Counted from the first letter of the stretch, positions 16,230 through 55,018 are shown. The stretch is DNA of 57,335 bases from Bacteroidota bacterium (GCA_019695345.1 JAIBAE010000021.1:1-57335), one strand, 5' to 3'. Numbers and translations are program-made. Notes: generated by a model not told the origin, from the letters alone.

Positions 16230-16254
16230 AAGTAATTTCTTTTGGTACCCCACA

Positions 16255-18040: not shown

Positions 18041-18304
18041 TGCTATCGCAATCCGTACCGTACCGTTAGCCGTTTGTAGGGGCATATTGCATACGCCCGC
18101 CTTCATCTGCGGGAAAGAATCTCGTGCGCCACACAGCATTTACCGTGATGAGAAATACGAACACGGAGAATCGGAGACACAGAGGATTGCACGGAGTTCT
18201 TTTACTCTACCATCATGATAACCGTGCGTATGTACGTGGAATATTCTCTCCCGCAGAGTGAGGATATGTTGATAACCTATGGATAGGAGCGGCAATGCGA
18301 TAGC
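18041..18304. mobile_element. MITE copy M5 (long form, 264 bp)
   Basis: Bounded by TGCTATCGCAATCCGTACCG … GCGGCAATGCGATAGCA. Near-identical to M4. The track's spurious ORF 18033..18218 lies inside it. Confidence 0.75.
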
Positions 18305-20818: not shown

Positions 20819-21071
20819 TGCTAACGCCTGACCGCACCACACGTTGTACATCATAACACCAAACTGTTTGCGGGAAAAGAACCACGCACAAGCAACAACA
20901 GTTATCGTGATGGGAAATACTAACACGGAGAATCAGAGGCACGGAGTTTTTCACGGAGAAGAATTCTCATAAATCACACCCACACGATTTCAATTCTTAT
21001 TGAGATAAGAATCTCTCCCGCCGTGGGTGAGTGGGCTGTAACATAAGGTTTGGTGCGGTCATGCGATAGCA
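20819..21071. mobile_element. MITE copy M6 (divergent long form, 253 bp)
   Basis: Left end TGCTAACGCCTGACCGCACCA, right end GGTTTGGTGCGGTCATGCGATAGCA. Internal CGTGATGGGAAATACTAACACGGAGAATCAGAGGCACGGAG is homologous to M4/M5. It sits between the 3' ends of the binding-protein gene and the MBL gene. Confidence 0.65.
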
Positions 21072-23689: not shown

Positions 23690-23789
23690 ATGCATTGCAA
23701 ACAGAACATAATATAGGCGGGACAATAACATATGCTAAGTAACACGGACTATTGTGGATAAGATACTATACAAATGTTTGTTGAATGCG

Positions 23790-23850
23790 ATGCTGTACGG
23801 GGTGGTTCGCACCGGGTTGGCGCGCTTAAGGGTTGCTTCGGTAGATGAGA
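23790..23850. repeat. Family B dispersed repeat (forward-type)
   Basis: GGTGGTTCGCACCGGGTTGGCGCGCTTAAGGGTTGCTTCGGTAG. Confidence 0.6.
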
Positions 23851-24045
23851 GTAAAAATATATCTATTATGATTTGTAGTTAAAGGATTAAACTTTTATCA
23901 ACAGAATTGTGTGTGATAGCGAACTGCCTATATTTGTAAAGCATCGAATTTCAAAAATTAAGTGTATTCGGTATCTTTATATATAGAGCAGTGTGATACT
24001 GTAGATATTTGCGTTATTTTATTCACATTATAGGGGAGTTCTTTT

Positions 24046-28264: not shown

Positions 28265-28287
28265 ACAACAGTATTCCAAAAAGTAAA

Positions 28288-28325
28288 AGGTCGGGAGATA
28301 TAGTTTTCTCCTGACCTTTTTTATT
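28288..28325 (+). terminator. Rho-independent terminator after mltD
   Basis: Stem AGGTCGGGAGA / TCTCCTGACCT (11 bp with one G-U pair) followed by TTTTTTATT. Confidence 0.8.
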
Positions 28326-28344: not shown

Positions 28345-28462
28345 TCCCACTTCTGCCGAAGCATCGCTTAAGCGCGCCAACCCGGTGCGAGCCAAACGTT
28401 CAGCGTCGCAGATAATTACTCTCTCGCAAAGTAGCAAAGACGCAGAGGGTACGAATGGTGTC
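28345..28462. repeat. Family B dispersed repeat with leader segment (reverse orientation, about 115 bp)
   Basis: TTCTGCCGAAGCATCGCTTAAGCGCGCCAACCCGGTGCGAGCCAAACGTTCAGCGTCGCAGATAATTACTCTCTCGCAAAG…. This is the reverse complement of the 44363-44480 and 49054-49170 type. Confidence 0.65.
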
Positions 28463-28690
28463 TTGTTATTCTGAGCAATGTGAAGAACCTTTCGCCACTG
28501 CTTTGTCATTCTGAGCAGCGCGAAGAATCTGTTCAGGTGTGGCTACTGTATTAACGTAATTTTCGTAGCGACGCGCGATGCCTCGCGTCGAGGAAATACA
28601 CAACAGTATGGCATTGTGCACTCTGTGAATAACTCTGTGCAACTCTGTGGGAACCTCGTACAAATGTAGAGTTTTTGCGCCGCTGTAACG
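28462..28690. repeat. Cluster of short repeat modules: 2x TGTCATTCTGAGCA…GAAGAA motif, C-hairpin (GCGACGCG…CGCGTCG), D-module (3x ACTCTGTG)
   Basis: CTTGTTATTCTGAGCAATGTGAAGAACC and TGTCATTCTGAGCAGCGCGAAGAATC (reverse of GATTCTTCGCGNTGCTCAGAATGACA). CGTAGCGACGCGCGATGCCTCGCGTCGAGG (same as 48956-48995 and 56680-56715). CACTCTGTGAATAACTCTGTGCAACTCTGTGGGAACCTCG (same as 46900-46950 and 54595-54655 in reverse). Confidence 0.6.
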
Positions 28691-28740
28691 ATTGGCTCCG
28701 CCCGTGTGACGGCGCTGAAGAATTGCTTCGGCGTTGAACC
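28691..28740. repeat. Family B dispersed repeat (variant GGCTCCGCCCGTGTGACGGCGCTGAAGAATTGCTTCGGCG)
   Basis: Shares CCGCCCGTGTGACGGCGC with the 16255 and 31471 copies and GCTTCGGC with the forward-type copies. Confidence 0.5.
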
Positions 28741-30099: not shown

Positions 30100-31431
30100 T
30101 TATCCTTTACCTATTATCTTCACAACCGACCACGTTTCGGGCGTGCAAAACTGCTCGGCAAGGTACTTCATGTCTTGCAGGGTAACAGCATCAATAGCCG
30201 CAATGGTTGCCATAACATCTTCGTGCGCGCCTTCTTCCATTTCCATTTTGGCTAATGTTTGCATCCGTGCCGACATGCTTTCTAACGCCATAATTGTTGA
30301 TGATTTTAATTGCTCTTTTGCGCGTTGTAATTCGCGAGCGGGAATAGTATCGGTTATCAGCTTTTGTAACTCTGCCGCAATTAATGTTTCTGTTCTCTGT
30401 AGTGTTGCTGTTTCTGTTCCTGCATAAATAGAAAGTATGCCGCAGTCGGTAAGTAACTGCAACGATGAATACACCGTGTATGCCGATGCACTTTTCTCGC
30501 GGATGCGTTGGTGAAGGCGCGAGCTCATACCATCGCCAAGAATTGTGTTTAACAAGCTCAGTGCATAACGCTGTTTAGACTGCGCACCAAACGTGCGGCG
30601 TATAAGCAGTAAATGCGATTGCTGAAATGTACGTTCTGTTTCGATATGTTTAGGTGTAAACATACGTGGCAGTGTGCGTTTGTGTTGTACAACTTTGCGT
30701 CTGCGTTTGTACTTCCCAAAGTACCGTTCTACCATTGCAACTGCGTTACTGTGCGATATATTGCCTGCAATAGCAATCACAATGTTATCGGGTGTGTAAT
30801 ATGATGTATGGAAATCATGAAGTTGTGTTGCTGTAATATTCTTTACGGTGTCGGCATAGCCAATAATAGGATTACCCAGCGCGTGTTTACCAAACACCGA
30901 TTTTTCGCCAATATCCAGAATAAACTCTTCGGGTTCGTCGTCGTACGATTTGATTTCTTCTAAAATCACATTACGTTCTTTGCGAATATCCTCAGCCCGG
31001 AAAGCCGGGTTCATGGTAACATCGGCAACAAGCTCTACGGTTTTCTCAAAATGGTGAGAAAGTGCACGCACATAGTAGCACGTTTGTTCTTTAGAAGTAA
31101 ATGCGTTGATATACGCGCCTAACGATTCAAACTGCGATGCAATCTGTTTGGAACTGCGCGATGTGGTTCCCCTAAACACAGCATGTTCGGTAAAATGTGC
31201 AATGCCTGCTTGTAGCGGTTGTTCGTCGCGGGCTCCTACATCAATCCAAACACCAAGCGAGAAAGACTGCACCGTAGGTACTTCTTCGCTTATAATCCGT
31301 ATTCCGTTTGCAAGAGTACTTTTTTTGTACGTAGTAGTAAAAGGTTCGTGGGCGGGTAACTGAGTAACGTTGTTTCTATATCGTTTCATTTCAAAAGGTC
31401 TGTGATAAATCGTTTCAAAATTAGGAAACAT
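30100..31431 (-). CDS. M16-family (pitrilysin/insulinase-like) zinc peptidase
   Basis: Inverted zinc-binding motif HxxEH (GIAHFTEHAVFRG) with a downstream Glu. 443 aa. The start could be the internal MKRYRN. Confidence 0.8.
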   Translation of the reverse strand: MFPNFETIYHRPFEMKRYRNNVTQLPAHEPFTTTYKKSTLANGIRIISEEVPTVQSFSLGVWIDVGARDEQPLQAGIAHFTEHAVFRGTTSRSSKQIASQFESLGAYINAFTSKEQTCYYVRALSHHFEKTVELVADVTMNPAFRAEDIRKERNVILEEIKSYDDEPEEFILDIGEKSVFGKHALGNPIIGYADTVKNITATQLHDFHTSYYTPDNIVIAIAGNISHSNAVAMVERYFGKYKRRRKVVQHKRTLPRMFTPKHIETERTFQQSHLLLIRRTFGAQSKQRYALSLLNTILGDGMSSRLHQRIREKSASAYTVYSSLQLLTDCGILSIYAGTETATLQRTETLIAAELQKLITDTIPARELQRAKEQLKSSTIMALESMSARMQTLAKMEMEEGAHEDVMATIAAIDAVTLQDMKYLAEQFCTPETWSVVKIIGKG

Positions 31432-31470
31432 TCAACGGATAGCAGAGAAAAATACTGTAACGGAAGTCTG

Positions 31471-31556
31471 CATGGCTTCCCACTTGCGCCGTAGCAATCC
31501 GCCAGCGCCGTCACACGGGCGGAGCCAATCGGTACAGCATCGCAGTGAATGTTATG
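31471..31556. repeat. Family B dispersed repeat (reverse-type variant)
   Basis: …GCGCCGTCACACGGGCGGAGCCAATCGGTACAGCATCGCAG. Compare 46808 and 54502: GCCGTCACCCGGGCGGAGCCAACCGTTCAGCGTCGCAG. Confidence 0.55.
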
Positions 31557-31877
31557 TAGCCTTTATGATTTACCGGAATACTGTTATCTCAGCATAAAAC
31601 ATAAACTTACGTTTTACCACCGTAGAAAATGAGTACCGCCCCAACCAAAAACAATTATTACGTTTGCTAAGATTTTGCTAAGAAATGTTTCTGTTGAGAA
31701 AAAGTACATTTGTAATGATTACGTTATATAATAGTGTTTTGTTATTGCACCAATCAATTGTATGTTTGGAACAACGTAAAACAACAAGGCAACATATAGG
31801 TAAAAAGTAGATTAGTATTTGAAATATAATTAAGCGTTAGTTACTGGATTCTACGTGAAAATCTTGCAGGGTTAAAT

Positions 31878-31936
31878 GAATCAGAATACAGTAAGGGAAC
31901 GCCCGTTCGCGGGCGCGTTCTTTATTGTTCTGGTTC
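31878..31936 (+). promoter_or_regulatory. Conserved leader palindrome / terminator-like hairpin upstream of paralog A1
   Basis: GAATCAGAA…GGAACGCCCG-TTC-GCGGGCGCGTTC followed by TTTATTGTTCTGGTTC. About 130 bp upstream of the start codon. Conserved in the duplicate copy (34244-34303). Confidence 0.45.
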
Positions 31937-32063
31937 ACGGTTACCTGCAAGTACCGCACGTAGGACATAATGAATTGCCGCCCGTTTTTGCACATGGGAT
32001 AAAGGGAGCAAGGTGTGTTAAGGTGGGCTTATGGTTTTACTCACATTATAATAGGAGTTCTTT

Positions 32064-33374
32064 ATGAAACTCAGATTTGTTTTTTGTTGGGCAATCTTGT
32101 TATGCCTGACACACACACTTGCACGGGCCGGTAGTATCAATGATACTGTTTGGACAAAGCGGCTAAAGTCACCTATAAGTTTTATTACTTTTTCTCCTAA
32201 GGGTAATTTTATTGTCGTTGTATCCGACACAACTACCTATCTCTATGATAAAAACGGAACAGTTATCAATTCAAAAATTCCATCTCCGACAGGGCCAATG
32301 GGTAGTAGCAATCTTCAAGTGTTTATCACACAAGACGAACAACGAATAATCATGCAACATGATTCTGTTATACAGAGTTATGATGTTAAAACAGGAGAAC
32401 TCTTGAGGTCATTTGATGTTGATACAACACTATTCCGCATTGCAGCCATAAGCCCGAATGAACGATATTGCCTAACGCTTCAAAGTAGAAGTGGTGGTAT
32501 GTTTGATTCTGAAAATGGTTGGAAGGTATGGGATATGCAAACTGGAAAAGTATTGTATTCTAAGGATTATCAGAAAGAACCTGATTTTGATGTTGTAGCT
32601 CCATTACAAGGTAACGTTCTTTGTCAATCAAACAGAATAGTTGTACTGGAATATCGGAGATACAAAAATTCTTCTCGTACGCAGTTTACGACTCTGGTTT
32701 ATGACATCGAAACTCAACAAGTAACAGATACAATATTAAACACTCAAGAAGGATATAGTTTCAATGTCTCGCCTGATTGTAATTATTTCCAGTTTAGAAC
32801 CGATAGAACAGACTCCGGGATTGTTGTAAATAACCTAAAAACAGGAAAAGAACTATACAAGGTAAGATGCTTTGGAAGCACCTCAAGCACCATTGCCTTC
32901 ACACCCGACGAAAAGTATATAGCTATTGGAGACCCAAGTGCAGGAACAATCAAAATACTTAACTCAATTACTGGAGAGTTAACATGGAATGCCCCCGGTT
33001 CAGTTTATGGAATTAGTTTTAATAATGATTATTTGATGGCAATGTATCTACAAGAGTATTTAGTTTTAGCAAAACCAAAATTAAGTTCCACTAGTGTTAC
33101 TGGTAATGATATTATTGAAACAGATAATGTTCTCTATCCCAATCCAAACAGCGGTATGGTAAGCTATAGTATTACTTTAGATAAACCAAGTACCATCATC
33201 AACGAAGTTGTTTCTGTATCAGGTGAAATTTCTTTTCGGAACGAAACCCCATTGTTAGAATCCGGGAAACAAACAATTACCATTCCATTAGATAGTGTTG
33301 CTAACGGAGAATATCTGTTGAAGGTAAACGCCGGAACCAAAAGCATTACGTACAAACTTATCATTAACAAATAG
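32064..33374 (+). CDS. T9SS-secreted beta-propeller (WD40/PQQ-like) protein, paralog A1
   Basis: Signal peptide MKLRFVFCWAILLCLT. Beta-propeller-like blades. The C-terminal T9SS-like sorting domain (…YPNPNSGMVSYSITLDK…EYLLKVNAGTKSITYKLIINK) is identical to that of paralog A2. AGGAG SD upstream. Confidence 0.75.
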   Translation: MKLRFVFCWAILLCLTHTLARAGSINDTVWTKRLKSPISFITFSPKGNFIVVVSDTTTYLYDKNGTVINSKIPSPTGPMGSSNLQVFITQDEQRIIMQHDSVIQSYDVKTGELLRSFDVDTTLFRIAAISPNERYCLTLQSRSGGMFDSENGWKVWDMQTGKVLYSKDYQKEPDFDVVAPLQGNVLCQSNRIVVLEYRRYKNSSRTQFTTLVYDIETQQVTDTILNTQEGYSFNVSPDCNYFQFRTDRTDSGIVVNNLKTGKELYKVRCFGSTSSTIAFTPDEKYIAIGDPSAGTIKILNSITGELTWNAPGSVYGISFNNDYLMAMYLQEYLVLAKPKLSSTSVTGNDIIETDNVLYPNPNSGMVSYSITLDKPSTIINEVVSVSGEISFRNETPLLESGKQTITIPLDSVANGEYLLKVNAGTKSITYKLIINK

Positions 33375-33386
33375 GGATGTACAACC

Positions 33387-33860
33387 ATGAAAAACCTAAT
33401 CATTTTGGTAACAATATTCGTTACCACACTTTCGGCGTATGCACAAAACAATATTAACCCACAACCCCTCGGTACCTTCACTACCGATAACATTGATTGG
33501 AATAGTACTGTATTTAACACTAACATCAACTATTTTGTCCGCTCATGGAATTGGGCTCGCCCCTGTAAAAAGCTCGATGATGCCTTGTACATTAACAGCT
33601 ATCACAACATAAATTTCGACAACATCATCGAAACCAATCTCGACGTACCCGATAATCTACCCGTGTTTCAACAACTCTACGGCGACCCCAACAACTGGTG
33701 GCGAGGTGCAGGATTAACCCAATCTTGGAGCACACCAAGTTTATTTAATACACAAAGTATGTGTTACCACCCCGAACTAACAGTCGACACAACGGACAGT
33801 TTTCAACCCATGTTGAACGATGCTCAAGGCGCAGTATTTGGGTGGTTAAATAATATGTAA
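33387..33860 (+). pseudogene. Truncated 5' copy (157 codons) of the 1767-aa giant T9SS protein gene
   Basis: The first ~150 codons are near-identical at DNA level to 35758..36210. The reading frame ends where a dispersed-repeat copy (33862-33920) interrupts the homology. Confidence 0.75.
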
Positions 33861-33861
33861 T

Positions 33862-33920
33862 CCCGCTTACGCCGAAACGAAACTCAAGCGCGCCAACCCT
33901 GTGCGAACCAACCGTTTACC
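33862..33920. repeat. Family B dispersed repeat (reverse-type) at a segmental-duplication junction
   Basis: CCGCTTACGCCGAAACGAAACTCAAGCGCGCCAACCCTGTGCGAACCAACCGTTTACC. It sits exactly where homology between the truncated (33387-33860) and full-length (35758-) gene copies ends. Confidence 0.65.
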
Positions 33921-34243
33921 TATCGCAATCATATTGTGTAGGTTATCCACATGAGTAGAAAATGAGTACCACATGAGTAGAAAATGAGTACCACCCTATT
34001 AAAAAACATTATTTACGTTTGCTAAGATTTTGCTAAGATTTTGCTAAGAAATCTACATCAATACATTAAACATATTTGAATTGTAAGAACTGATAAGAAT
34101 TGTCTTTGCCGTTGAACCAATCAATTGTAAGTTTGGAGCAAGGTAAAACAATAGGCATCAGGATATACATATAGTCATTTAGTTTTTTGATACATAGTTA
34201 GCGTTTGTTACTGGATTCCATACTAAAACTTGCCAAGTTATTG

Positions 34244-34303
34244 AATCAGAATCACAGTAAAGGAACGCCCGCTTGCGGGCGCGTTCTTTATTGTTCTGAT
34301 TCA
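34244..34303 (+). promoter_or_regulatory. Conserved leader palindrome / terminator-like hairpin upstream of paralog A2
   Basis: GAATCAGAATCACAGTAAAGGAACGCCCGC-TTG-CGGGCGCGTTCTTTATTGTTCTGATTC. The outer GAATCAGAA/TTCTGATTC arms and the inner GC-rich arms are both inverted. Confidence 0.45.
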
Positions 34304-34428
34304 CGGTTCTGGCAAGTACCGAGTATGGAGCATAAATGAAATGCCGCCCGTTTTTGCACATGGGAAAAAGGGAGCAAGGTGTGTTGAGGTGGGCTACTTG
34401 TTTTACTCACATTTTTTAGGAGTTCTTT

Positions 34429-35745
34429 ATGAAACTCAGATTTGTTTTTTGTTGGGCAATCTTGTTATGCCTAACCAACATACTGTTATGTGCCGGAGGT
34501 ACCGAAGATACCGTTTGGACGCGGCGGCTAAAGTCACCAATAAGTTTTATTACCTTTTCACCTAAGGGTAATGTTATTGCTGTTGTGTCTGACACAACAA
34601 CCTATCTCTATGATAAGAACGGAATGGTCATCAGTTCAAACATTCCATCTCCAACAGGACCACTGACTAGTTTTAATAATAAAGTTTTTTTCGTGCAAAA
34701 TGAAGAAAACATATTGATGTTACATGACTCTGTAATACAGATATATAGCACACAAACAGGTGATTTGGTTCAATCATTTGATATAGATACAACATTGATT
34801 CGTATAGAGGGCATAAGCTCAGATGAGCAATATTGTTTAACAATACAAAGTAGAAGCGGAGGAATGTTTGATTCTCAAATTGGTTGGAAAATATGGGATA
34901 TGAAAACAGGAAAAGTACTAAAGTATAAAGAGTATAACGAGCCGCTTCCGAATGTCCGTAAAGTATCTCCATATATGGGTACATTTTTGTGTTCAGGTAA
35001 CAAAGTAGCTATAAAGGAATTTAAATATTACAATTCACCACCCGGAACATCAACTACGTACACAGTTATTTACGACGTAGAAACGCTTACTCCTTTAGAT
35101 ACAATTCAGGAAGAAGAAAAATCGTGGAAATTTACCATGTCACCGCAATGTACGTACATAGCATATAATTTACAACGCAATGATACCGGAATAAAAATCT
35201 ACAATGTAGCCACTAAAAAACTTGTGCGCTCACTTCGATGCAATGGCAATTCTGCCAGTACAATAGCATTTACTAATGATGATCAATATATTATAGTTGG
35301 GAATGTTGGTACTAACACTATAGATGTTACAAAGGTATCAACCGGAGAAAATGTATGGCATTTAGAAGGCACTACTCCACAGGGAATAAGTATCACAAGT
35401 GATAATTATTTGGCATTATTTGTTTCGTACCATTTGGATTTATACAAGCCAAATTTCCTAACAAGTGTTTCCGATATATCTCATCAAACAATTAACACAG
35501 TCATCTATCCAAATCCGGCAATTAAGGATTTACAATTAGGGGTAGAAATAGTATCACCATCAAGTGTAAAAATAGAAATAATATCTTTAATCGGAGTAGT
35601 AGTTTATCAAACAGAAACCCCACTACTCAACTCCGGTAATCAAACAATAACCATACCGTTAGAGAGTGTTGCTAACGGAGAATATCTGTTGAAGGTAAAC
35701 GCCGGAACCAAAAGCATTACGTACAAACTTATCATTAACAAATAG
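34429..35745 (+). CDS. T9SS-secreted beta-propeller (WD40/PQQ-like) protein, paralog A2
   Basis: Same N-terminal 16 aa and same C-terminal ~35 aa as A1 (identical DNA). The core is only about 45-55% identical by eye. SD AGGAG upstream. Confidence 0.75.
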   Translation: MKLRFVFCWAILLCLTNILLCAGGTEDTVWTRRLKSPISFITFSPKGNVIAVVSDTTTYLYDKNGMVISSNIPSPTGPLTSFNNKVFFVQNEENILMLHDSVIQIYSTQTGDLVQSFDIDTTLIRIEGISSDEQYCLTIQSRSGGMFDSQIGWKIWDMKTGKVLKYKEYNEPLPNVRKVSPYMGTFLCSGNKVAIKEFKYYNSPPGTSTTYTVIYDVETLTPLDTIQEEEKSWKFTMSPQCTYIAYNLQRNDTGIKIYNVATKKLVRSLRCNGNSASTIAFTNDDQYIIVGNVGTNTIDVTKVSTGENVWHLEGTTPQGISITSDNYLALFVSYHLDLYKPNFLTSVSDISHQTINTVIYPNPAIKDLQLGVEIVSPSSVKIEIISLIGVVVYQTETPLLNSGNQTITIPLESVANGEYLLKVNAGTKSITYKLIINK

Positions 35746-35757
35746 GGATGTACAACC

Positions 35758-38700
35758 ATGAAAAACCTAATCATTTTGGTAACAATATTCGTTACCACAC
35801 TTTCGGCGTATGCACAAAACAATATTAACCCACAACCTCTCGGTACCTTCACTACCGATAACATTGATTGGAACAGTACTGTATTTAACACTAACATCAA
35901 CTATTTTGTCCGCTCATGGAATTGGGCTCGCCCCTGTAAAAAGCTCGATGATGCCTTGTACATAAACAGCTATCACAATATAAGCTTTGATAACATCATT
36001 GAAACCAATCTCGACGTACCCGATAATCTACCCGTGTTTCAACAACTCTACGGCGACCCCAACAACTATTGGCGAGGTGCAGGATTAACCCAATCTTGGA
36101 GCACACCAAGTTTATTTAATACACAAAGTATGTGTTACCACCCCGAACTAACAGTTGACACAACGGACAGTTTTCAACCCATGTTGAACGATGCTCAAGG
36201 TGCAGTATTTGGTTGGCTAACCAAACAACTTGGCGCACGTGGCACCGGAACCGACCAATGGCGTTGGGTTTTGCAAGCAAATCAAGTAAGTGGTACACGT
36301 GTTAAAGTTCTTTCCAATGCTTGGAAACCTGATGCCTTTACGTTTCTTGATTGGTTAATTAATCAAGGTGATCTGGCTGACACGTGGGCTACAGGCATGA
36401 ATGATTTACAAACTGGTTCTATTCTTGATACAGGTTTCTACCATCCCCGTAACGGTAAAAGAATGTACTGCACCATCAACCTGCGTGCAACAAATACATC
36501 ACAAATAGCACAACATCTCGATGACCCTGTACTGGCAATCCGGCTTCCGTATGTATTGTATGATTCTGCTTCAGGAAACAGTACAAACGGGGTTATTGTA
36601 TTTGATTCATTACCGAATGCAAATGCCACACTAACGCAAATAGTTGGGCGCAATGCAAACGATACACGTGGGATGTATCGCCCGCAACAACTTTCCCGCG
36701 ATACCATAATTATCATAACAGGAAGGATGTTACAAAACGCCAATACCGATAACAGTGTAACACTTTCAGGATTTTTCTTTGCTGATGGTTTAACTCACCA
36801 AGGAGTTTATGACAACAACCCAAGGTTTAAGGATGAGCGTGGCGACATACAAGCATCTTTGCAAAGTATTATAAAATTAGATGTTGAGGCTTACTATTAC
36901 GGCAATGTAGATGTTGCAATAGATTATATAAGAATAGAAACACAACAAGCCCGCAAAATATACTTTGGTTCAATAGATAACCCTGCCCGTGATTCTTTAC
37001 AAGAAACAATAATACGTTTTATACTTAATAGTAAGCACCCACGCCTTGCACGTATTTATGGAGTAGAAGAGCGAAGACAATCATGGTGGGGTGTTAACCG
37101 CTATTTCAATAAACTGATGAATGATAATGCCACAACCGAACTGGGTATTCATGAAAATTCACCGTACAGCCATTATATGCATGCAACTGGGTATAAAGAG
37201 CTTTGGAATGCATATACGTTGTTATTTAATGCAGGTGTTGCAGCTCCTTATCTACGATATGCTCATCATGATTCTGTAGGTACTGGTAATAATATGCATA
37301 ACGTCTTTTCAGCAAGAACTTTTGGGTTTATGGCCGGATATAGTGGTAATGATTGGCTTACAAATCTACCACCATCCAACTGGGATACGCTTAAATCACA
37401 TTACGAAACCATTATCAACTCTTCAACACAACCCGGACTTACCGGATTTGCAAATAATTCCTATGCTCCGTACCAAAAATTTAATAGTGGTAGTGCAACG
37501 CATTATACCCTAGGGGTTCAATTTGAAATTGAACAACAGTTATACCAACGGTATTACAAACAAAATGCCTTCTTGTTTGGCTCAACAAAATGGTGGGCTA
37601 ACATTTGGGCTTCATCATGGGGGTGGCGTTTGGATAATAGTATTAATACAGCAAAGTTGAACGCTAATGAGGTACGCCCTAAAACAGGGGAAGAGCTACA
37701 ATATATACTTTGGAACACAATATTAATGGGTGCTAAAGGTATTCAATATTATGCTGATATAAGTTTACCTAATGAAGGTACTGGTTTTGGTGCATTAGTT
37801 GGTTATATAGTTCGTGACCCACTTGGATATGCGAACAATAATTATCCAACGGGTAACGCCTTGCTGTATTCTGATGTAGCAGGCACGGATTGGATGGATT
37901 TAAATGATATACAAAGTAATAATTGGAGCAACATTGTTCATATACAAAATAATTGGTTGAATTTAATGGGTACAGACCAAAATCATATTTATGTAGGTAT
38001 GAAAACACCCCGAGTGGTTACGTCAAAAATAAATAAATGGATTTCCGACAATGAACAAGAGTTATTGGCATTGAAATTACAGGCATGGTATGGTAAAGGG
38101 TTTGTAAAAATGTACACTCAACATAGTCAGTATCAGGTAAACGATACACTGTTAGGTCATTATGTTAATCTATCAGGGCTAAAATCGCGTCCAATCAACC
38201 GAGTTCATCAAGATGGAACACCTTACTATGAAAACGAATCGTTACAGAATGGAGATTCAACCTTTGCTGATGTAATGTTACATAAACATTCATCATTTTC
38301 ATTAGACAGTGTGTTTTATCTTGGTGTGCAATCACGTAGAACAGACCCACTCTTCAGAGAAAGTTCCTATAATAATGGCGAAATGACTTTTATACCTACA
38401 GCAGATTGGGATAACCTCATGCAAAACGGTGGAACATATTGGCGTGACAACAATAGTCAAACAACCGCTTGGTGGCAAGACAAATACTGGAAACGACAAG
38501 GATGTAGAGAAATCACAATTCCATTTAACTATTCCACATTGCCAAGTGAACCCCGATTACTCCATGTACAGGAAGTAGGAGGAGGAATAGATACGATAAT
38601 AAGAACAACAGGAAAATTGGCAATCAGGTTTACTCCCGGGGAGGGCAAGCTTTTGAGAGTTACAATCCAACGGGCAAGGTTAGATGTAGCAGAAGGAGAA

Positions 38701-41061
38701 CTTCATAATACAAATCAATCCAAAATTGTGGCATATCCACTCATGAGAGCAAACTATGCAGGTTGCACCCTTGATGCTACCGATAGCGTTGTATATTACA
38801 TGACGTATGCACGTACAGATTTTCTAACTGACAATCAGGAAGTATATTTCCGTCGTTCATTACCAAGTAAACAAAGTGATAATCACACGATGGGTTTACA
38901 ATGGGAAGATGAGATATGTTTGAGTTGTAATGGTATTCTGAAGTTAGATAACCGACTTCAAATGTTACATTGTGGAGTGCCAACTATTGTAGTAAGAGTA
39001 GATACCGCAGATAGAGATTATAGTCAAATGTTATGTGCCAATGGAATACCACAGCTAAAGACCTATGTTGTGTATGGTTGTGCAGACAACATAGATTCTA
39101 CCAAATTCAGAGTAGTTGAAAACGTATTTTTAGCACAAGGAACTATAAATGTTGGTAATGCCTTGGAAATTGATAGTTCAAATGGGATTCGTAAAGATGC
39201 CTATGGAATAAACACAACTGATCAAGAATTTATCTGGACATGGACCTCACCTGCCGTAAACGCCTCATCAAGTGGTAACTACTATGCGTATTCGGATTCC
39301 TTATTAGGAATTGTGACACGTTGGAAACCTGCGGATGCTTTGTTATTTGATGCTAACCAATCAGATAAAAATTCTGTACGTTTTTCAACTACAAGTATCA
39401 CACAATGTTTACATCCATCCTTGAACACCTATTCAAGAATTAGTCAATGGGAAAATGAATGTGCGCTTGTGTGGGAAGAACATGGAAGACCGGAAGCACC
39501 AAGTAATATTATTCCATACACAAGGATTAAGTTAAATCCAATTACTAACCCGCCACAAACAATGCATTTTCTTTCAAAGAATTTAACAAACTTCACGCCG
39601 TTCAGGTCACAGTGTAATATTGATAGCAGTGTTGTTCTGCTAAGTCTTGATACCATTGATGATAAAGAGTTCCCAATGGTGTATCGTGGAGTTGAGAACT
39701 ATCATACAGTAAATCCAACTCCGTTAGTAACAAGACATTGGGATAAAATTATATGGCAAAATTGGAGATATGATACTATATATCATTCGGAACTATATTT
39801 ACGGGGAGTAAATTCTCAGGATTCATGCGCTACTACCGACGCGGGGTGGAATGTATGGTGGTTAAATAAAATTTGGTCAGAGAATGTGTTTCTAGTTAAT
39901 CCCAACATTACACAAGGCGGAGGTGTAAGAATAGATCCAAATGATAACGCAACGAATATAAGTGATAGTTCAATAGTTGTGAATTTTTCGTATGATCCAC
40001 CTCATGATACCAGAATCATGCAAGCACAATTTGGATATTGGTCTGTCACACCAAACTTTAACTTGTTATCAATAGAGAATTTGAATAATAATTTGAACTA
40101 CGTGCCGTATGTTCAAGATATTACCGATGGGGCATATCCGCATGTATCGGCTCAACCGTGGGTAACAAATTCATCATCATGGAACATCAATCGTAGGATA
40201 TATTCACCAGATTGGGAGAGTGCTACAATAGTTAGTTCGGCACAATACTTTTATAAAAAATTCAACTCTGAAAACTCAAAACCTTTACATTACACCGGAT
40301 ATTACTTTGAAGGAGACAGCAATAGAATGGTAAAAACACTGTTCTCTAATATGAAAGTTGCCAATAAAGATGTATTGTTTGCTCCACAACGTACAATCAG
40401 TAATACAACAGTACTAGCAAAAACAGATACAATATATAGTACATGGTTTACTGTTGGAAACACAACAATCCTTGATTCATATTTGTTAGGTGTTAATAAT
40501 CCTTGTGTAAAAATAGAGGTAGAAAAAAGACGGGAAAGTAATAATGAACCCGTAGAACGATATACACTACCTTATACGAGTTCACGAAATGACCGTGAAA
40601 AACTCAAACATCGTTACACTTTACTTCGTGGAGGCAACAAGTATTATAGAATAGCATTAGTTAACCTGTGTCCACAACGAATGAAAGTAACGGAAGAAAT
40701 TCAGATTGATGGATTGCGTTCAATTGATGAATTGGGTAAGCAATCAGATGGAGAAGAATATGTTTACAGCGTTGATTTAGGAAAGAGTTTTGTAGCTGAT
40801 GATGTGTTATTTATCAAACCAAATCCGGCAGATCAACTGATAGATATTACGTTTAACGGATTATTAGAGGATATAGAGACATCAAACTTTGACTATAGTT
40901 ATGAGGTTGCAGATAATATTGGAAGGATAAAACAGAAAGGTCTCATACGGGCAGGTGAGTCGATACAAGTAAATACAAGTGGTTTATCTCAAGGTTCATA
41001 TGTAGTTCGTGTAAGAGGTTCGATAAATACATTGAGTAAATCTTTTGTGATAATGAGATAA
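35758..41061 (+). CDS. Giant (1767 aa) secreted protein with a T9SS-like C-terminal domain, function unknown
   Basis: Signal peptide MKNLIILVTIFVTTLSAYA. No recognisable catalytic motifs. The C-terminal ~90 aa (DVLFIKPNPADQLIDITFNG…YVVRVRGSINTLSKSFVIMR) are T9SS CTD-like. A strong intrinsic terminator follows at 41092-41134. Confidence 0.7.
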   Translation: MKNLIILVTIFVTTLSAYAQNNINPQPLGTFTTDNIDWNSTVFNTNINYFVRSWNWARPCKKLDDALYINSYHNISFDNIIETNLDVPDNLPVFQQLYGDPNNYWRGAGLTQSWSTPSLFNTQSMCYHPELTVDTTDSFQPMLNDAQGAVFGWLTKQLGARGTGTDQWRWVLQANQVSGTRVKVLSNAWKPDAFTFLDWLINQGDLADTWATGMNDLQTGSILDTGFYHPRNGKRMYCTINLRATNTSQIAQHLDDPVLAIRLPYVLYDSASGNSTNGVIVFDSLPNANATLTQIVGRNANDTRGMYRPQQLSRDTIIIITGRMLQNANTDNSVTLSGFFFADGLTHQGVYDNNPRFKDERGDIQASLQSIIKLDVEAYYYGNVDVAIDYIRIETQQARKIYFGSIDNPARDSLQETIIRFILNSKHPRLARIYGVEERRQSWWGVNRYFNKLMNDNATTELGIHENSPYSHYMHATGYKELWNAYTLLFNAGVAAPYLRYAHHDSVGTGNNMHNVFSARTFGFMAGYSGNDWLTNLPPSNWDTLKSHYETIINSSTQPGLTGFANNSYAPYQKFNSGSATHYTLGVQFEIEQQLYQRYYKQNAFLFGSTKWWANIWASSWGWRLDNSINTAKLNANEVRPKTGEELQYILWNTILMGAKGIQYYADISLPNEGTGFGALVGYIVRDPLGYANNNYPTGNALLYSDVAGTDWMDLNDIQSNNWSNIVHIQNNWLNLMGTDQNHIYVGMKTPRVVTSKINKWISDNEQELLALKLQAWYGKGFVKMYTQHSQYQVNDTLLGHYVNLSGLKSRPINRVHQDGTPYYENESLQNGDSTFADVMLHKHSSFSLDSVFYLGVQSRRTDPLFRESSYNNGEMTFIPTADWDNLMQNGGTYWRDNNSQTTAWWQDKYWKRQGCREITIPFNYSTLPSEPRLLHVQEVGGGIDTIIRTTGKLAIRFTPGEGKLLRVTIQRARLDVAEGELHNTNQSKIVAYPLMRANYAGCTLDATDSVVYYMTYARTDFLTDNQEVYFRRSLPSKQSDNHTMGLQWEDEICLSCNGILKLDNRLQMLHCGVPTIVVRVDTADRDYSQMLCANGIPQLKTYVVYGCADNIDSTKFRVVENVFLAQGTINVGNALEIDSSNGIRKDAYGINTTDQEFIWTWTSPAVNASSSGNYYAYSDSLLGIVTRWKPADALLFDANQSDKNSVRFSTTSITQCLHPSLNTYSRISQWENECALVWEEHGRPEAPSNIIPYTRIKLNPITNPPQTMHFLSKNLTNFTPFRSQCNIDSSVVLLSLDTIDDKEFPMVYRGVENYHTVNPTPLVTRHWDKIIWQNWRYDTIYHSELYLRGVNSQDSCATTDAGWNVWWLNKIWSENVFLVNPNITQGGGVRIDPNDNATNISDSSIVVNFSYDPPHDTRIMQAQFGYWSVTPNFNLLSIENLNNNLNYVPYVQDITDGAYPHVSAQPWVTNSSSWNINRRIYSPDWESATIVSSAQYFYKKFNSENSKPLHYTGYYFEGDSNRMVKTLFSNMKVANKDVLFAPQRTISNTTVLAKTDTIYSTWFTVGNTTILDSYLLGVNNPCVKIEVEKRRESNNEPVERYTLPYTSSRNDREKLKHRYTLLRGGNKYYRIALVNLCPQRMKVTEEIQIDGLRSIDELGKQSDGEEYVYSVDLGKSFVADDVLFIKPNPADQLIDITFNGLLEDIETSNFDYSYEVADNIGRIKQKGLIRAGESIQVNTSGLSQGSYVVRVRGSINTLSKSFVIMR

Positions 41062-41091
41062 AGTTTGAGATTACTATTAATCTTAAACAAA

Positions 41092-41134
41092 GGGTGACTG
41101 TGAGCAAGGGAGCGCAGTCGCCCTTTTTTATTTT
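41092..41134 (+). terminator. Rho-independent terminator after the giant T9SS gene
   Basis: Stem GGGTGACTG / CAGTCGCCC (9 bp with one G-U pair) followed by TTTTTTATTTT. Confidence 0.8.
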
Positions 41135-41267
41135 CACTTGATAGTTATTAAAGGAGCAAAGCACTTGGATGTTGACGCTGTTGGCGGTGATTCTCTGCAA
41201 ACCACTATTGCAGAATGGATGAATACTCATTTGAATCAGTCACGATAAAGGTTGGAACAGTAGATGA

Positions 41268-44095: not shown

Positions 44096-44244
44096 AGGTT
44101 CATGTAGTGAATAGTTACAAGCTACAATTTACTATTTCTTTTTCTGCTGACGCATGGCCGCACCAATCAACCAACAATCAACAGCCATCATTCTGCGGAT
44201 GAGAGCCGCAGTGTTCTACCTTGCAGTTATCGTGAATAGTTTAT

Positions 44245-44480
44245 CAATATAACCGTAGGAGCGAATAGATATTCGCCCATGTGTAGATAGATGATGAATG
44301 AACATTACACAAAAACCGGTAAGATTCTTCGCGTTGCTCAGAATGACGAAGCAGCGTTTATACCCTTTGCGCCTCTGCAAACTTTGCCTCTTTGCGAGAG
44401 AGTGATTAACAGCGACGCTGAACGTGCGGTTCGCACCGGGTTGGCGCGCTTAAGGTATGCTTCGGCATAGGCGGGAAGCA
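44245..44480. repeat. Composite repeat: hairpin unit (GGAGCGAATAGATATTCGCCC), GATTCTTCGCGTTGCTCAGAATGAC motif, leader and forward family B element
   Basis: CCCTTTGCGCCTCTGCAAACTTTGCCTCTTTGCGAGAGAGTGATTAACAGCGACGCTGAACGTGCGGTTCGCACCGGGTTGGCGCGCTTAAGGTATGCTTCGGCATAGGCGGGAAGC. About 90% identical to 49010-49170. Confidence 0.65.
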
Positions 44481-46787: not shown

Positions 46788-46807
46788 AAAATAACATTTA
46801 TGTATTC

Positions 46808-46882
46808 CCACCTCTGCCGAAGCACGCCATACTACGCCGTCACCCGGGCGGAGCCAACCGTTCAGCGTCGCAGTTAATTCTA
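46808..46882. repeat. Family B dispersed repeat (reverse orientation); left inverted boundary of FG-GAP cassette 1
   Basis: Its reverse complement GAATTAACTGCGACGCTGAACGGTTGGCTCCGCCCGGGTGACGGCG…GCTTCGGCAGAGGTGGG matches 49085-49168 at both ends. Confidence 0.65.
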
Positions 46883-46957
46883 ATCAACGCAAGGACTCTA
46901 CACGTGTGCGAGATTCCCACAGAGTTACACATAGTTGTTCACAGAGTACACAAGAAA

Positions 46958-47115
46958 GATGCTTCGCATTACTCAGAATGACAAAAAGAGATAGAACGTG
47001 TATTGTTGTTCAATATAACCGTAGGGGCGAATAGACATTCGCCCATGTAATGATTGGTGAAGATGAACTCACAATAAGGCGATAGATTCTTCGCGTTGCT
47101 CAGAATGACAATAAA
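46958..47115. repeat. Composite ~125 bp repeat, 1.3 units (motif GAT[G/T]CTTCGC…CAGAATGACA + GGGCGAATAGACATTCGCCC hairpin)
   Basis: Same unit as the tandem array at 56741-57026; near-identical to 54656-54832. Confidence 0.65.
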
Positions 47116-47304
47116 GATAATGAAGTATTACGGATATGATGTAAGAATACAGAACATAACCCCATGCTTTAGCGTGGGGAAATCAAACATAACAACATGC
47201 TCTCGGACTTTAGTCCTGAGTGGTTGCAGGGCTAAAGCCCATGCCTGCGTTAGAGGTTTCTTCTCCGCGCTAAAGCGGCGGAGTTATTGAAATACGTTGG
47301 ATTC
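47116..47304. repeat. 190-bp multi-hairpin element, copy 1 (abuts the stop codon of FG-GAP gene F1)
   Basis: Four stem-loops: CCCCATGC-TTTA-GCGTGGGG (47160-47179), CTCGGACT-TTA-GTCCTGAG (47202-47220), GCAGGGC-TAAA-GCCCATGC (47226-47244), CTCCGCGC-TAAA-GCGGCGGAG (47263-47283). Near-identical copies at 54833-55003 and 57027-57214. Confidence 0.7.
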
Positions 47305-47319
47305 TTCGCGTGGGGAAAG

Positions 47320-48870
47320 TTACTGCACAATAACACCACACACATTAAACTGTGTGCCGTTATCAATCATAATGTTGTAACGCCCTGCGGCAAGTGTTGG
47401 TGGTAATGGTTGTAACGGTATATCTGTTTCTCCTTGGTGTAAGGCACCACTCCAAAGTGTTGTAATCTTTTTACCATCCATTGCATAGAGATCAATGGTG
47501 TAGGTGCCATGTTGTTGTACTGTTACTTGTACACGGATATTATCTTGTTTTGTTAGTATGGTGTTTTGTGCTGTAATTGATATACTTGGCTGTTGTATAA
47601 GTGTATCTTGCTCTGTTACACCAACCGTTCCAACAACACCAAGATAGATGCGAAATAAACTATGTTCAGTACCATCATAAAAAACTGCAATATCGCCAAG
47701 CCCATCATGATTGACATCACCTACACTAGAAATGTTTTGTGTGTATAGTTTATCATCTGGCGTAACTGGAATTGCTTCAGGTATTTTTGCAATTGGATTT
47801 GGGTTAGTGCGTGGATCACCACCAAAACATAAATCATATCCACTGAACAATGAAATTGTGATCCAACCTGGGAACTTTAAATCCGGAATTGAAACAGGAA
47901 TCTTGTACTTAGGTGTTGTTTGGCTTCTAAACCACAACTTCTCAAAATTATCATTGTCCAAATTGTATAATGTACCTATCCATAATAAACTATGTTGTGT
48001 ATTGTTGTATAAGTGGAATGATTTAATTCCTAAAGGAAAAGATTCACTATTCCCACTACTTAAAAACTGAGTACTCAACTTTTGATATTCAACTTTAACA
48101 TTAACTCCAGATGTAATAAAGCGAATTTCCCAAATGTGTAAAGAACTGTTAGAGCGGTTGTTATCCCACGTCATGGTTATCATACGTGCTTTGCCGTTGT
48201 TGGTGTAGGCATCTATAATGCACTCCTGATATAACCCTGCATCGTTGGTGTGGGGTAAGTTAACTACTTGCATTTTGCTTAAATCTGCATTACCGAAAAT
48301 GATGCTCCCTATATTGTATTCTTTGGTGGGTTTGCTATCACTTGAAACTAGGACATCTTCTTTTCCATCATTGTCGAAATCACCCTTAAAGTATCCTACA
48401 TTAAATCCGTTTTTTCTTATATCATTATAGTACGATTTAACTTCGGGTGTATCAGGAGGAACTCCATTTTTTTTACCAACATAAAAACTACACGTACTTT
48501 GGAAATAAAAGTCTTGTATACCGTCACCATTAAAGTCACCCATTAGGTGTGCAGCTCTTGCTCCCCAATTAAACATATTTTCGGTATCACCTTTATATCT
48601 GTTATATATTGTTGGTGTGTTTGCACTGAAATAAGGTATAAAAGCATTCATCCCACCACGTGCAGTATCAAAGTTTGGAAGGTACGTCATGTTCTTACCA
48701 AAGCTGGTATTCTCCAATTCATACCACACAGGAAGTTCGGGAAGTTTGGAGTAGTCTTGTGCGTGGGTTGTGTGTGGCAGGCACAGTAGCACAAGTACAA
48801 TTGTAATAGCTTTTATAACAAGCATTGCAGGGCGGTTTCTTTTGTTAGGTAATTCTGTTGCGCCAAACAT
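47320..48870 (-). CDS. T9SS-secreted FG-GAP/integrin-alpha-like repeat protein, paralog F1
   Basis: I chose the start at MFGATELPNKRNRPAMLVIKAITIVLVLLCLPHTTHA (signal peptide); the track ORF extends 258 nt further into repeat DNA. FG-GAP-like Ca-binding loops are present (GDFNGDGIQD, GDFDNDGKEDV, GDVNHDGLGD). The C-terminal T9SS CTD is GTYTIDLYAMDGKKITTLW…NVCGVIVQ. Confidence 0.75.
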   Translation of the reverse strand: MFGATELPNKRNRPAMLVIKAITIVLVLLCLPHTTHAQDYSKLPELPVWYELENTSFGKNMTYLPNFDTARGGMNAFIPYFSANTPTIYNRYKGDTENMFNWGARAAHLMGDFNGDGIQDFYFQSTCSFYVGKKNGVPPDTPEVKSYYNDIRKNGFNVGYFKGDFDNDGKEDVLVSSDSKPTKEYNIGSIIFGNADLSKMQVVNLPHTNDAGLYQECIIDAYTNNGKARMITMTWDNNRSNSSLHIWEIRFITSGVNVKVEYQKLSTQFLSSGNSESFPLGIKSFHLYNNTQHSLLWIGTLYNLDNDNFEKLWFRSQTTPKYKIPVSIPDLKFPGWITISLFSGYDLCFGGDPRTNPNPIAKIPEAIPVTPDDKLYTQNISSVGDVNHDGLGDIAVFYDGTEHSLFRIYLGVVGTVGVTEQDTLIQQPSISITAQNTILTKQDNIRVQVTVQQHGTYTIDLYAMDGKKITTLWSGALHQGETDIPLQPLPPTLAAGRYNIMIDNGTQFNVCGVIVQ

Positions 48871-49009
48871 AGCGTTGTTGTTTCCAACCTGCAAACTTGT
48901 TTTTTTTGGTGGTGATTGAAAAAGGAGTTTTTGCAGAGTACACAATGCCTGTTTATTTTCGACGCGAGGCATCGCGTCGCTACGAAAAACTACGATTATA
49001 CAACAAGGA

Positions 49010-53896: not shown

Positions 53897-53934
53897 TACA
53901 ATAACAAAAGCAAATTCCCCAATCCCCCAATGGG

Positions 53935-55003: not shown

Positions 55004-55018
55004 TTCGTGTGGGGAAAG

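Follow-up and report, generated by a model that had tools for sequence, protein, structure and literature searches.

Several ways of deciding, within the leader of a messenger RNA, whether the gene behind it will be transcribed are already well described, and the closest in function to the system considered here are the terminator/anti-terminator attenuators, which include riboswitch expression platforms and the protein-dependent BglG/LicT leaders with their ribonucleic anti-terminator (RAT) and terminator. In Bacteroidota, the UpxY/NusG-paralogue-dependent 5' untranslated regions (UTRs) are operon-specific anti-termination leaders of surface-structure loci. Our subject is a leader in a 57,335-nt stretch of DNA from a Bacteroidota bacterium (GCA_019695345.1, JAIBAE010000021.1:1-57335; 'the window' means this whole stretch), where a long hairpin with a GC-rich, terminator-like core and a U-rich tract stands ahead of each of two genes for beta-propeller-like cargo of the type IX secretion system (T9SS). 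We call these two copies unit 1 and unit 2, and a third copy of the whole module lies on one JGI metagenome contig (L001, 3132 bp). We infer that the element is the core of a structured 5' leader of ~290 nt, within a promoter-plus-leader module placed before T9SS cargo genes. That it serves as some kind of structured cis-regulatory leader seems to us probable; that it works by attenuation, through conditional premature termination, as a new attenuator-like cis-regulatory leader, is a plausible proposal that we put forward tentatively.

No named family fits, and the comparison with the known systems is instructive on both sides. Like the terminator/anti-terminator attenuators, the leader lies between a promoter (here a predicted one) and a start codon, holds a terminator hairpin with a U-tract, and has an upstream segment that excludes the 5' half of that terminator, the alternatives being nearly isoenergetic. 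Unlike riboswitch or BglG/LicT leaders, it has no recognisable aptamer, RAT-like site or conserved leader peptide; moreover, its terminator is nested in a 43-bp hairpin, and the anti-terminator overlaps only the lower stem. With the trp and his attenuators it shares successive complementary segments (1:2, 2:3, 3:4 and 4:5, for five segments that we call seg1 to seg5), two global folds and a short open reading frame (ORF) that overlaps one segment, but the candidate ORF here, which is cut short in unit 1, comes after the first terminator and lacks a run of regulatory codons, and the 2:3 pairing, which in trp and his is the anti-terminator, is here the terminator-like helix. The UpxY/NusG-paralogue leaders resemble it in being long 5' UTRs of surface or secreted products in the Fibrobacterota-Chlorobiota-Bacteroidota (FCB) group, with leader termination as the controlled step; in contrast to them, there is no NusG-paralogue gene in or beside the island that carries our modules, and no known shared sequence motif. 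Finally, the bidirectional gene-end terminators of the window have the same A-rich 5' flank, GC-rich stem and U-rich 3' flank, whereas the present element sits in a leader past a promoter-like site and has three extra covarying helices and a competing upstream segment. What is unusual is the nesting of a terminator inside a long covarying hairpin and the portability of the module.

The preliminary description of this locus, made from the sequence alone, had placed a terminator-like inverted repeat ~130 bp before each start codon, and it is indeed present at both sites, with ~132 nt between the end of the U-tract and the ATG (at 32064 and 34429). On the + strand, GAACGCCCG-NNNN-CGGGCGCGTTC occurs exactly twice in the window (31897-31920 and 34263-34286), and even with 3 mismatches allowed there are still only these two sites, where shuffled sequences lead one to expect 0. 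Both cores, each continuing into the U-rich tail TTTATTGTTCTG (Table 1), were flagged by a terminator scan as an all-GC stem of 6 bp with a loop of 4 nt and the tail CGTTCTTTAT (31900-31915 and 34266-34281), in keeping with their earlier likening to an intrinsic terminator. The stem can be extended to GAACG/CGUUC and then abuts UUUAUUGUU, giving the GC-rich stem-loop and U-rich tract within 0-2 nt that are typical of such terminators. Across the three copies the core stems and the U-tract are 100% identical and the tetraloop alone differs (UUCG vs CUUG), both versions belonging to known classes of unusually stable tetraloops. The core does not lie at the 3' end of a transcription unit, being found 132 nt 5' of the start codons; in unit 2 and L001 ~400 nt and one element resembling a repetitive extragenic palindrome (REP) separate it from the upstream co-oriented ORF, and the gene that precedes unit 1 (M16 peptidase, 30100-31431) lies on the opposite strand, as had been stated. 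Strong terminators elsewhere in the window do lie where genes end (28285-28320 and 53932-53971, for example) and have the same design of A-tract, GC stem and U-tract, which tells us that the organism uses such signals.

The inverted repeat had also been described as nested, with arms of about 9 and 10 bp; the nesting is real, while the arms were put too short, since RNAfold gives a hairpin of 117 nt and 43 bp in five helices, P1 to P5. Its strength is evident in both units (Table 1) and, at -44.5 kcal/mol (z = -3.9), in L001. Folding the + and the - strand gave -60.1 and -45.9 kcal/mol for unit 1, -56.8 and -53.5 for unit 2, and -44.5 and -32.8 for L001, and the folds hold 14 G-U pairs that would be A-C mismatches on the opposite strand. 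Because of these G-U pairs and the greater stability of the + strand in every copy, we regard the hairpin, judged by its sequence, as an RNA feature of the + strand and not a DNA palindrome.

Further evidence comes from the outer helices, whose sequences differ between copies while their pairing is kept. The arms of P1 read UUCUACGUG/CACGUAGGA in unit 1, UUCCAUACU/AGUAUGGAG in unit 2 and UCCGAGC/GUGUUGGA in L001; those of P2 are CUUGCAGG/CCUGCAAG in unit 1 and ACUUGCCA/UGGCAAGU in unit 2; and those of P3 are AUCAGA/UCUGGU in unit 1 and AAGGA/UCCUU in L001. In the alignment of the three copies, which has 44 pairs, 92.4% of cells can pair, against 41-48% when the partners are slid by 1-3 columns, and 10 of the 44 pairs show compensatory changes on both sides, where the slid controls show 0-3 and only 1 of 500 shuffles did as well. 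Covariation in a homologous leader had been named beforehand as a test of the proposal, and this is what was found. P4, P5 and the U-rich strand are invariant in the three copies, the compensatory changes reach 35 nt past the U-tract, and the internal-loop sequences AAAA/UACCG and GUUAAA/CGGUUA are conserved between flanking stems that vary. Since P1-P3 use sequence beyond the U-tract, they can form only in RNA that has been read through, and a full hairpin in such RNA is the only way we see of explaining their covariation. Simple attenuation does not explain these outer helices; their covariation suggests that read-through RNA exists and that its fold has a role, probably in stability, processing or translation.

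How much weight does conservation carry here? The two copies in the window are parts of one tandem duplication of ~2.37 kb (31560-33860 vs 33920-36230), so their likeness is not independent evidence, and the similarity of the units does not start at the hairpin but runs in blocks from ~440 nt 5' of the ATG. Identity between them is a mosaic, ranging from 45% to 100%: leader blocks are at 88-96%, the N-terminal half of the propeller at 62-86%, the C-terminal half at ~45% and the last 590 bp at 98-100%. The earlier claims that the element is conserved in both units, and that the ~90 nt after the U-tract are too (again 88-96%), are accurate as to identity, although the conservation of the element in both units follows from the duplication, and independent support comes from L001. 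This was the one further copy that the search suggested beforehand brought to light, and it stands in another genomic context: dprA and a REP-like repeat lie on its 5' side, and the coding sequence on its 3' side is not that of either unit. This coding sequence begins MKHTMFLL..., has a signal-peptide-like N-terminus and is cut by the contig end after 24 codons. In the three-way alignment the conserved blocks have 12-15 invariant columns out of 15 and the spacers 0-7 out of 15, one spacer of L001 carrying a 55-nt insertion. Invariant blocks between diverged spacers argue for selection and not for mere recency. From 5' to 3', the blocks are GTAGAAAATGAGTA, TACG with two to three copies of TTTGCTAAGA, the promoter consensus, AGCGTTWGTTACTGRATTC (seg1), the hairpin core with the U-tract, and then GCAAGTACCG, CATAAATGAAWTGCCGCCCGTTTTTGCACAT, GGTGTGTTRAGGTGGGCT, GTTTTACTCACATT and TTCTTTATGAAAC; the downstream block GCCGCCCGTTTTTGCACATGGGA occurs exactly twice in the window, at 31977 and 34343.

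The duplication itself is no artefact of assembly, because an independent ENA contig (L028) matches 33195-34095 at 99.9% identity and so reproduces the junction between unit 1 and unit 2. We note in passing that 33269-33860 and 35640-36230 are 98-100% identical though the neighbouring propeller halves reach only ~45%. The 157-aa ORF at 33387-33860 duplicates, in truncated form, the N-terminal part of the 1767-aa gene behind unit 2, and it is because this ORF copies the start of that gene that the last 590 bp agree so closely, a pattern that points to recent gene conversion or partial re-duplication and that L028 bears out.

It is the segment upstream of the hairpin that makes one think of a switch. 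No other window in the upstream 330 nt of any of the three copies complements the 5' arm of the terminator (seg2) as well as seg1 does, with duplex energies of -16.6 kcal/mol (unit 1), -19.6 (unit 2) and -16.7 (L001) against means of -5 to -6 (standard deviations 3.0-3.7; for the windows compared with seg1 of unit 1, mean -6.2 and standard deviation 3.1), and in each copy 0 of 1000 shuffles matched this complementarity, which would explain why seg1 is conserved. When nascent RNA is folded up to the loop, seg1:seg2 is in the minimum-energy fold, with equivalent helices in all three copies: GCGUU with AACGC and UUACUG with CAGUAA are common to all, and the third is UUCU with AGAA in unit 1, UUCC with GGAA in L001 and GAUUC with GAAUC in unit 2. 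With CGGGCG(CGUUC) transcribed, keeping or losing the seg1 helix changes the fold energy by only 0.7-2.6 kcal/mol, and when the U-rich strand is out the full hairpin is favoured by 3-7 kcal/mol. An alternative helix exclusive with the terminator stem, as one looks for in an attenuator, is thus present, but the overlap is with the lower stem only. Further downstream, seg3 (GCGGGCGCGUUCUUUAUUG) can pair with seg4 (CAUAAAUGAAAUGCCGCCCG) at -20.4 kcal/mol in unit 1 and -18.0 in L001, equalled by at most 2 of 1000 shuffles. This is the best of 300 downstream windows in unit 1, while in unit 2 another site slightly outscores seg4 as partner of seg3. When seg1:seg2 is enforced in RNAfold, seg3:seg4 pairs in all three copies.

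A leader needs a promoter, and the only promoter-like site kept in all three copies is an upstream TTTG-N19-TAnnTTTG, predicted from the Bacteroidota consensus, with both boxes and the 19-nt spacing conserved, ~300 nt 5' of each ATG and ~130 nt 5' of the hairpin. The window has 4 exact matches to this pattern where 1.5 are expected, and TAnnTTTG itself is enriched in intergenic DNA, with 18 of its 46 occurrences falling within 19.5% of the sequence. Between the hairpin and the ATG, a sigma-70-type scan and a TAnnTTTG search of the + strand gave no match to a second promoter; a sigma-54 promoter there was rejected by eye, TGCCGC-N-TTGCA being a misfit to the -24/-12 consensus. Upstream of the promoter-like site, the GTAGAAAATGAGTA box is doubled in unit 2 (33955-33968 and 33977-33990, a period of 22 bp), and a 25-mer with the TTTGCTAAGA repeats is invariant in all three copies and occurs twice in the window where chance would give 0; the TTTGCTAAGA(T) repeat is present twice in unit 1 and L001 (2593-2617) and three times in unit 2. 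The distance of these boxes and repeats from the promoter varies because of the 55-nt insertion in L001. Both elements look like candidate regulator-binding sites with copy-number variation of the slippage type.

Taken together, we can sketch how the leader might work as an attenuator. Transcription would start at TTTG-19-TAnnTTTG, ~300 nt 5' of the ATG, and seg1 (AGCGUUWGUUACUGRAUUC), made first, would pair with the A-rich 5' arm, seg2, whose last bases are GGAACGC. As seg3 (CGGGCGCGUUC) emerges, it would compete with seg1 for seg2. Should seg3 win, the GC-rich hairpin would reach the UUUAUUGUU tract and RNA polymerase would terminate, which we take as the default state; should seg1:seg2 be held, the hairpin would be left as a 6-bp stub and polymerase would read through. 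The holding factor could be a protein, a ligand, or a ribosome on the short upstream ORF. The read-through RNA would then fold into the full 43-bp P1-P5 hairpin, probably with effects on stability or translation as well, and a weaker hairpin with a U-rich tail (seg4:seg5), together with the seg3:seg4 alternative, might serve as a second checkpoint. One can go further and imagine an undescribed family of multi-segment switches, with five complementary segments and two terminator-like hairpins, the first nested in the covarying 43-bp hairpin, travelling as a portable promoter-leader cassette with horizontally exchanged T9SS cargo in Kapabacteria, and with a protein or ligand reading the internal loops of seg1:seg2; this is a speculative extension that we consider doubtful.

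A number of points weigh against attenuation, and we would rather state them together. The 3' arms of P1-P3 are transcribed after the U-tract, and these helices cannot influence termination there; the U-tract is interrupted (UUCUUUAUUGUU); and the 6-bp GC apex is compatible with most of seg1:seg2, the lower stem GAACG/CGUUC alone being blocked, so that seg1 may weaken termination rather than prevent it. The first two helices of the anti-terminator never vary and hence gain no support from covariation, the sequences compared are only three, two of them paralogues, and the candidate upstream ORF, shortened in unit 1, has 2 synonymous against 5 non-synonymous codon changes. The structure, the covariation, the strand bias and the competing complementarity can be read off the copies directly, while transcription start, termination, read-through and trigger are what we infer from them. 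The idea of an attenuator or cis-regulatory RNA therefore comes out of this analysis strengthened in part: the element is non-coding, strand-specific and structured, its third copy keeps the fold by compensatory changes and a competing upstream segment exists, but no known family is matched and P1-P3 stay unexplained by it.

What else could such a hairpin be? One alternative is a 5'-UTR hairpin acting after transcription, as an RNase III-type site, a 5' stabiliser or a protein platform, with its likeness to a terminator being incidental; it would change the half-life or the translation of the full-length messenger. It would account well for covarying helices that exist only in read-through RNA and for internal loops conserved beside variable stems; a near-continuous duplex of 43 bp would suffice for a double-strand-specific ribonuclease, and an SD-like (Shine-Dalgarno-like) GGA(G) lies in the 3' arm of P1 ~5 nt before an AUG. 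We nevertheless think it unlikely, as it does not account for the invariance of P4, P5 and the U-rich strand beside helices that covary, nor for a seg1 that repeats the complement of the 5' arm, and no nuclease or binding protein can be named. Somewhat less likely still is a constitutive, near-bidirectional insulator terminator at the edge of an acquired cassette, with an unrecognised cargo promoter downstream and with conservation reflecting recent descent. The anatomy does match that of genuine terminators of the window, the module lies in a strain-specific island and always after a REP-like repeat, the - strand folds well too (z from -2.0 to -6.8), and the invariant downstream 90 nt could hide a promoter for an alternative sigma factor. 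Yet unit 1 has no co-oriented upstream gene to terminate, the conserved consensus promoter ~130 nt upstream points into the hairpin and none is matched after it, compensatory changes extend 35 nt beyond the U-tract, and blocks that stay invariant among diverged spacers speak of selection and not recency.

That the promoter, ~155 nt and the terminator make up an independent small RNA (sRNA) gene, with the messenger having a start of its own, strikes us as improbable. A promoter followed by a terminator ~150 nt later is the standard layout of such genes, and fragments of attenuated leaders can act as sRNAs, but no part of the module is less conserved than the putative body (31776-31832), covariation joins sequence inside the putative sRNA to sequence past its terminator, and no second promoter was found. 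Last comes a DNA-level palindrome with no RNA function, be it a mobile repeat of the MITE (miniature inverted-repeat transposable element) or REP kind, a recombination site or a cruciform, which we hold to be very improbable even though a long imperfect inverted repeat in a strain-variable, repeat-rich island does invite the thought. Only three copies are known, with no more in 154 kb by covariance model; the 14 G-U pairs become A-C mismatches on the other strand; the outer arms differ within one genome yet remain complementary, which is unexpected for ends bound by a transposase; and there is no transposase or integrase domain among the island genes or the called neighbours in the syntenic locus L002. 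In the same vein, a MITE or REP repeat was rejected, the window having 2 copies, both in the duplicated units, and the pairing favouring the + strand; an invertible promoter was rejected with arms only 4 nt apart; and an integron attC site was set aside, with no R'/R'' boxes by eye and no integrase nearby.

The leader between hairpin and start codon holds further elements of interest. Hairpin 2 is proposed from an RNAalifold consensus and has invariant stems with several G-U pairs and a loop that varies in L001; seg4 is its 5' strand and UUAUGGUUUUAC follows it. It shows no covariation in the three copies and is not more stable than shuffled sequences, which counts against its part in the attenuation scheme. 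From the AUG in seg4, preceded at ~5 nt by the GGA(G) of the P1 3' arm, runs the candidate upstream ORF (31970-32002 in unit 1, 34336-34419 in unit 2, 2966-3049 in L001). It has 27 codons in unit 2 and L001, where its stop codon adjoins or overlaps the main Shine-Dalgarno sequence, and only 10 in unit 1, where it is ended by the GGGA[T/A]AAAGG difference, whose T/A alternative is marked in the preliminary description; its codon changes give no sign of peptide selection, and as a functional element it is only a possibility. Translation of it would unwind hairpin 2. A leader peptide over the first hairpin was considered and rejected, as the 63-codon ORF at 31876-32067 is found in unit 1 only, its frame being disrupted by a 1-nt indel in unit 2. 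There is also a 5-codon mini-ORF (UUG, three sense codons and a stop) that ends at the start of seg1 in each copy (31819-31833, 34187-34201 and L001 2817-2831); it has no Shine-Dalgarno sequence, lies in an AT-rich spacer and may be due to chance. As a separate observation, seg5 (GGUGUGUURAGGUGGGC) finds its best downstream partner in the signal-peptide codons, 37-50 nt past the ATG, in all three copies (32012-32028 with 32100-32118, 34378-34394 with 34469-34484, and L001 3008-3024 with 3112-3127), at -14.8 to -18.4 kcal/mol or ~3 standard deviations below the mean, and this includes the non-homologous coding sequence of L001. Such predicted pairing could be a long-range contact between UTR and coding sequence, or chance.

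Table 1. Positions in the window of the leader elements and of the genes and island that carry them
Feature	Position	Strand	Evidence or remark
Unit 1 conserved box GTAGAAAATGAGTA, 5' end of module, possible DNA-level site	31622..31635	+	identical in units 1 and 2 and L001
Unit 1 TACG-TTTGCTAAGA-T-TTTGCTAAGA, 11-bp direct repeat x2, candidate regulator-binding site	31659..31683	+	
Unit 1 promoter-like site TTTG-N19-TATGTTTG	31738..31768	+	Bacteroidota -33/-7 consensus
Unit 1 seg1 AGCGTTAGTTACTGGATTC, candidate anti-terminator strand	31833..31851	+	near-invariant in three copies, flanks diverged
Unit 1 long hairpin P1-P5	31849..31965	+	RNAfold -60.1 kcal/mol, z = -7.6
Unit 1 P1	5' arm 31849-57, 3' arm 31957-65		
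Unit 1 P2	5' arm 31863-70, 3' arm 31944-51		
Unit 1 P3	5' arm 31877-85, 3' arm 31929-37		
Unit 1 P4	5' arm 31888-98, 3' arm 31918-28		
Unit 1 P5	5' arm 31900-05, 3' arm 31910-15		
Unit 1 terminator-like core GAACGCCCG-TTCG-CGGGCGCGTTC, then TTTATTGTTCTG	31897..31932	+	terminator scan
Unit 1 seg4 CATAATGAATTGCCGCCCG, complement of seg3 (terminator 3' arm), with AUG of candidate upstream ORF	31966..31984	+	
Unit 1 hairpin 2, GCCCGUUUUUGCACAU/GUGUGUUAAGGUGGGC, 17-nt loop	31980..32028	+	RNAalifold consensus, weakly supported
Unit 1 U-rich tail, GTTTTACTCACATT (32034-32047), Shine-Dalgarno TAGGAG (32052-32057), up to ATG at 32064	32029..32063	+	
Unit 1 cargo gene, 436-aa beta-propeller-like protein with T9SS C-terminal sorting domain	32064..33374	+	Pfam
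Unit 2 TACG, then TTTGCTAAGA x3	34014..34049	+	
Unit 2 promoter-like site TTTG-N19-TAAGTTTG	34105..34135	+	consensus match
Unit 2 seg1 AGCGTTTGTTACTGGATTC	34200..34218	+	duplex with 5' arm, -19.6 kcal/mol
Unit 2 long hairpin P1-P5	34216..34330	+	-56.8 kcal/mol, z = -8.1
Unit 2 terminator-like core, CUUG tetraloop, U-tract	34263..34298	+	terminator scan, motif search
Unit 2 seg4 (34331-34350), hairpin 2 (34346-34394), GTTTTACTCACATT (34400-34413), Shine-Dalgarno (34417-34422)	34331..34428	+	
Unit 2 cargo gene, 438-aa beta-propeller-like T9SS protein	34429..35745	+	Pfam
Gene for 1767-aa T9SS protein, next after unit 2 cargo	35758-41061	+	
Strain-specific 9.6-kb island with both modules and all cargo genes	31544..41143	.	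synteny with L002

Does the element have relatives? As to the suggestion that it is riboswitch-like, no known riboswitch or leader family was matched by the Rfam covariance models: Rfam 15 gave 0 matches in the whole window at gathering thresholds, and at E <= 10 the region 31400-34500 drew only irrelevant, sub-threshold models of small nucleolar RNAs, long non-coding RNAs and CrcZ. A covariance model of the three copies found no further copy in 154 kb of the window and related loci. Among GTDB representatives a 23-mer had 0 matches, and the 9 matches of a 19-mer, in unrelated taxa (Kingella, Clostridia and others) and accompanied by none of the other blocks, were put down to chance. The hairpin pattern had 1 match in JGI metagenomes, which is L001; three patterns had 0 in IMG/VR, and blastn against plasmids and phages gave no match. 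Neither the neighbourhoods of the M16 peptidase (L002-L011) nor those of DprA (L021-L027) contain the module, the exact 1767-aa protein is not on record, and the route through the 157-aa ORF led only to a 901-bp contig that ends before the hairpin.

As to the genes that follow, the element does stand ahead of two beta-propeller cargo genes as described: both have a Por_Secre_tail match above the cut-off (29.8 bits in the unit 1 protein, against 27) and weak beta-propeller Pfam matches. Among 5.8 billion proteins, the only homologues found for the propellers were each other, at 54% identity. Both modules lie in an island that the syntenic locus of GCA_044230155.1 (L002) lacks; the M16 peptidase there is 99% identical. 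At the island site L002 has an intact gene for a 314-aa alpha/beta-hydrolase, of which the window keeps the last ~100 bp (41145-41248), and the left junction of the island coincides exactly with the end of a REP-like repeat. The Kapabacteria genome nearest to L001 (DprA 84% identical) has a convergent S-adenosylhomocysteine (AdoHcy) hydrolase gene directly after dprA, with no module. Because the island is missing in the one relative and the module in the other, the promoter-leader-cargo unit would appear to behave as a strain-specific cassette inserted beside REP-like repeats. The best matches of the M16 peptidase and of the L001 DprA are in metagenome-assembled genomes (MAGs) of Ignavibacteria and Kapabacteria, and the window's proteins are labelled as from a 'Bacteriodetes bacterium' MAG; by its protein matches the host lineage looks Kapabacteria/Ignavibacteria-like.

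To our knowledge, almost nothing is known of gene regulation in Kapabacteria and Ignavibacteria, or of the control of T9SS cargo past the start of transcription. Should our interpretation be true, the leader would be a new cis-regulatory RNA, and one small enough for testing in vitro. It also suggests that cassettes of secreted-protein genes may travel with a promoter and leader of their own, and this would account for the immediate control of cargo genes that have just been acquired. With three copies known, from an uncultured organism, the practical value is limited for now.

The REP-like intergenic repeat deserves a description of its own. It is ~70 nt long (…GCCGAAGCA…GCGCGCCAACCCGGTGCGA/GCGCCGTCACACGGGCGGA…CGTTACAGCATCGC), has no Rfam match and occurs in both orientations in at least 12 copies in the 57 kb, at 4652-4707, 4770-4862, 16246-16364, 23759-23851, 28345-28400, 28674-28715, 31478-31543, 33861-33916, 44383-44475, 46804-46862, 49075-49167, 54501-54559 and 57204-57296, as well as at 2470-2535 of L001 and ~9890-9960 of L002. 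Every leader module is directly preceded by one. Logan contigs from this species are all interrupted ~175 bp 5' of the M16 gene, at about the position of the REP-like repeat.

Other repeats abound in the window. A 67-nt repeat with the hairpin GGGCGAATAGACATTCGCCC is present in five copies (44231-44297, 46997-47063, 54695-54761, 56779-56845 and 56906-56972), and a 111-nt inverted repeat, GCTTTAGCGTGGGGAA…TTCTCCGCGCTAAAGC, in two (47166-47276 and 57076-57186). A second large duplication (46863-49100 vs 54561-56770) is 94% identical and includes ORFs of 602 and 530 aa; four tandem repeats of 228 nt lie in a 1496-aa HYR/T9SS gene (51500-52411); and a 139-nt intergenic repeat (12564-12702 vs 18086-18224) is 99% identical, with a third copy at 20873-20958 (77%). 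Finally, between the convergent ORFs 5982-8069 and 8222-9298 there is a 143-nt inverted repeat (8077-8219) whose 24-nt arms are 88% complementary, so that long intergenic hairpins are not unique to leaders in this genome.

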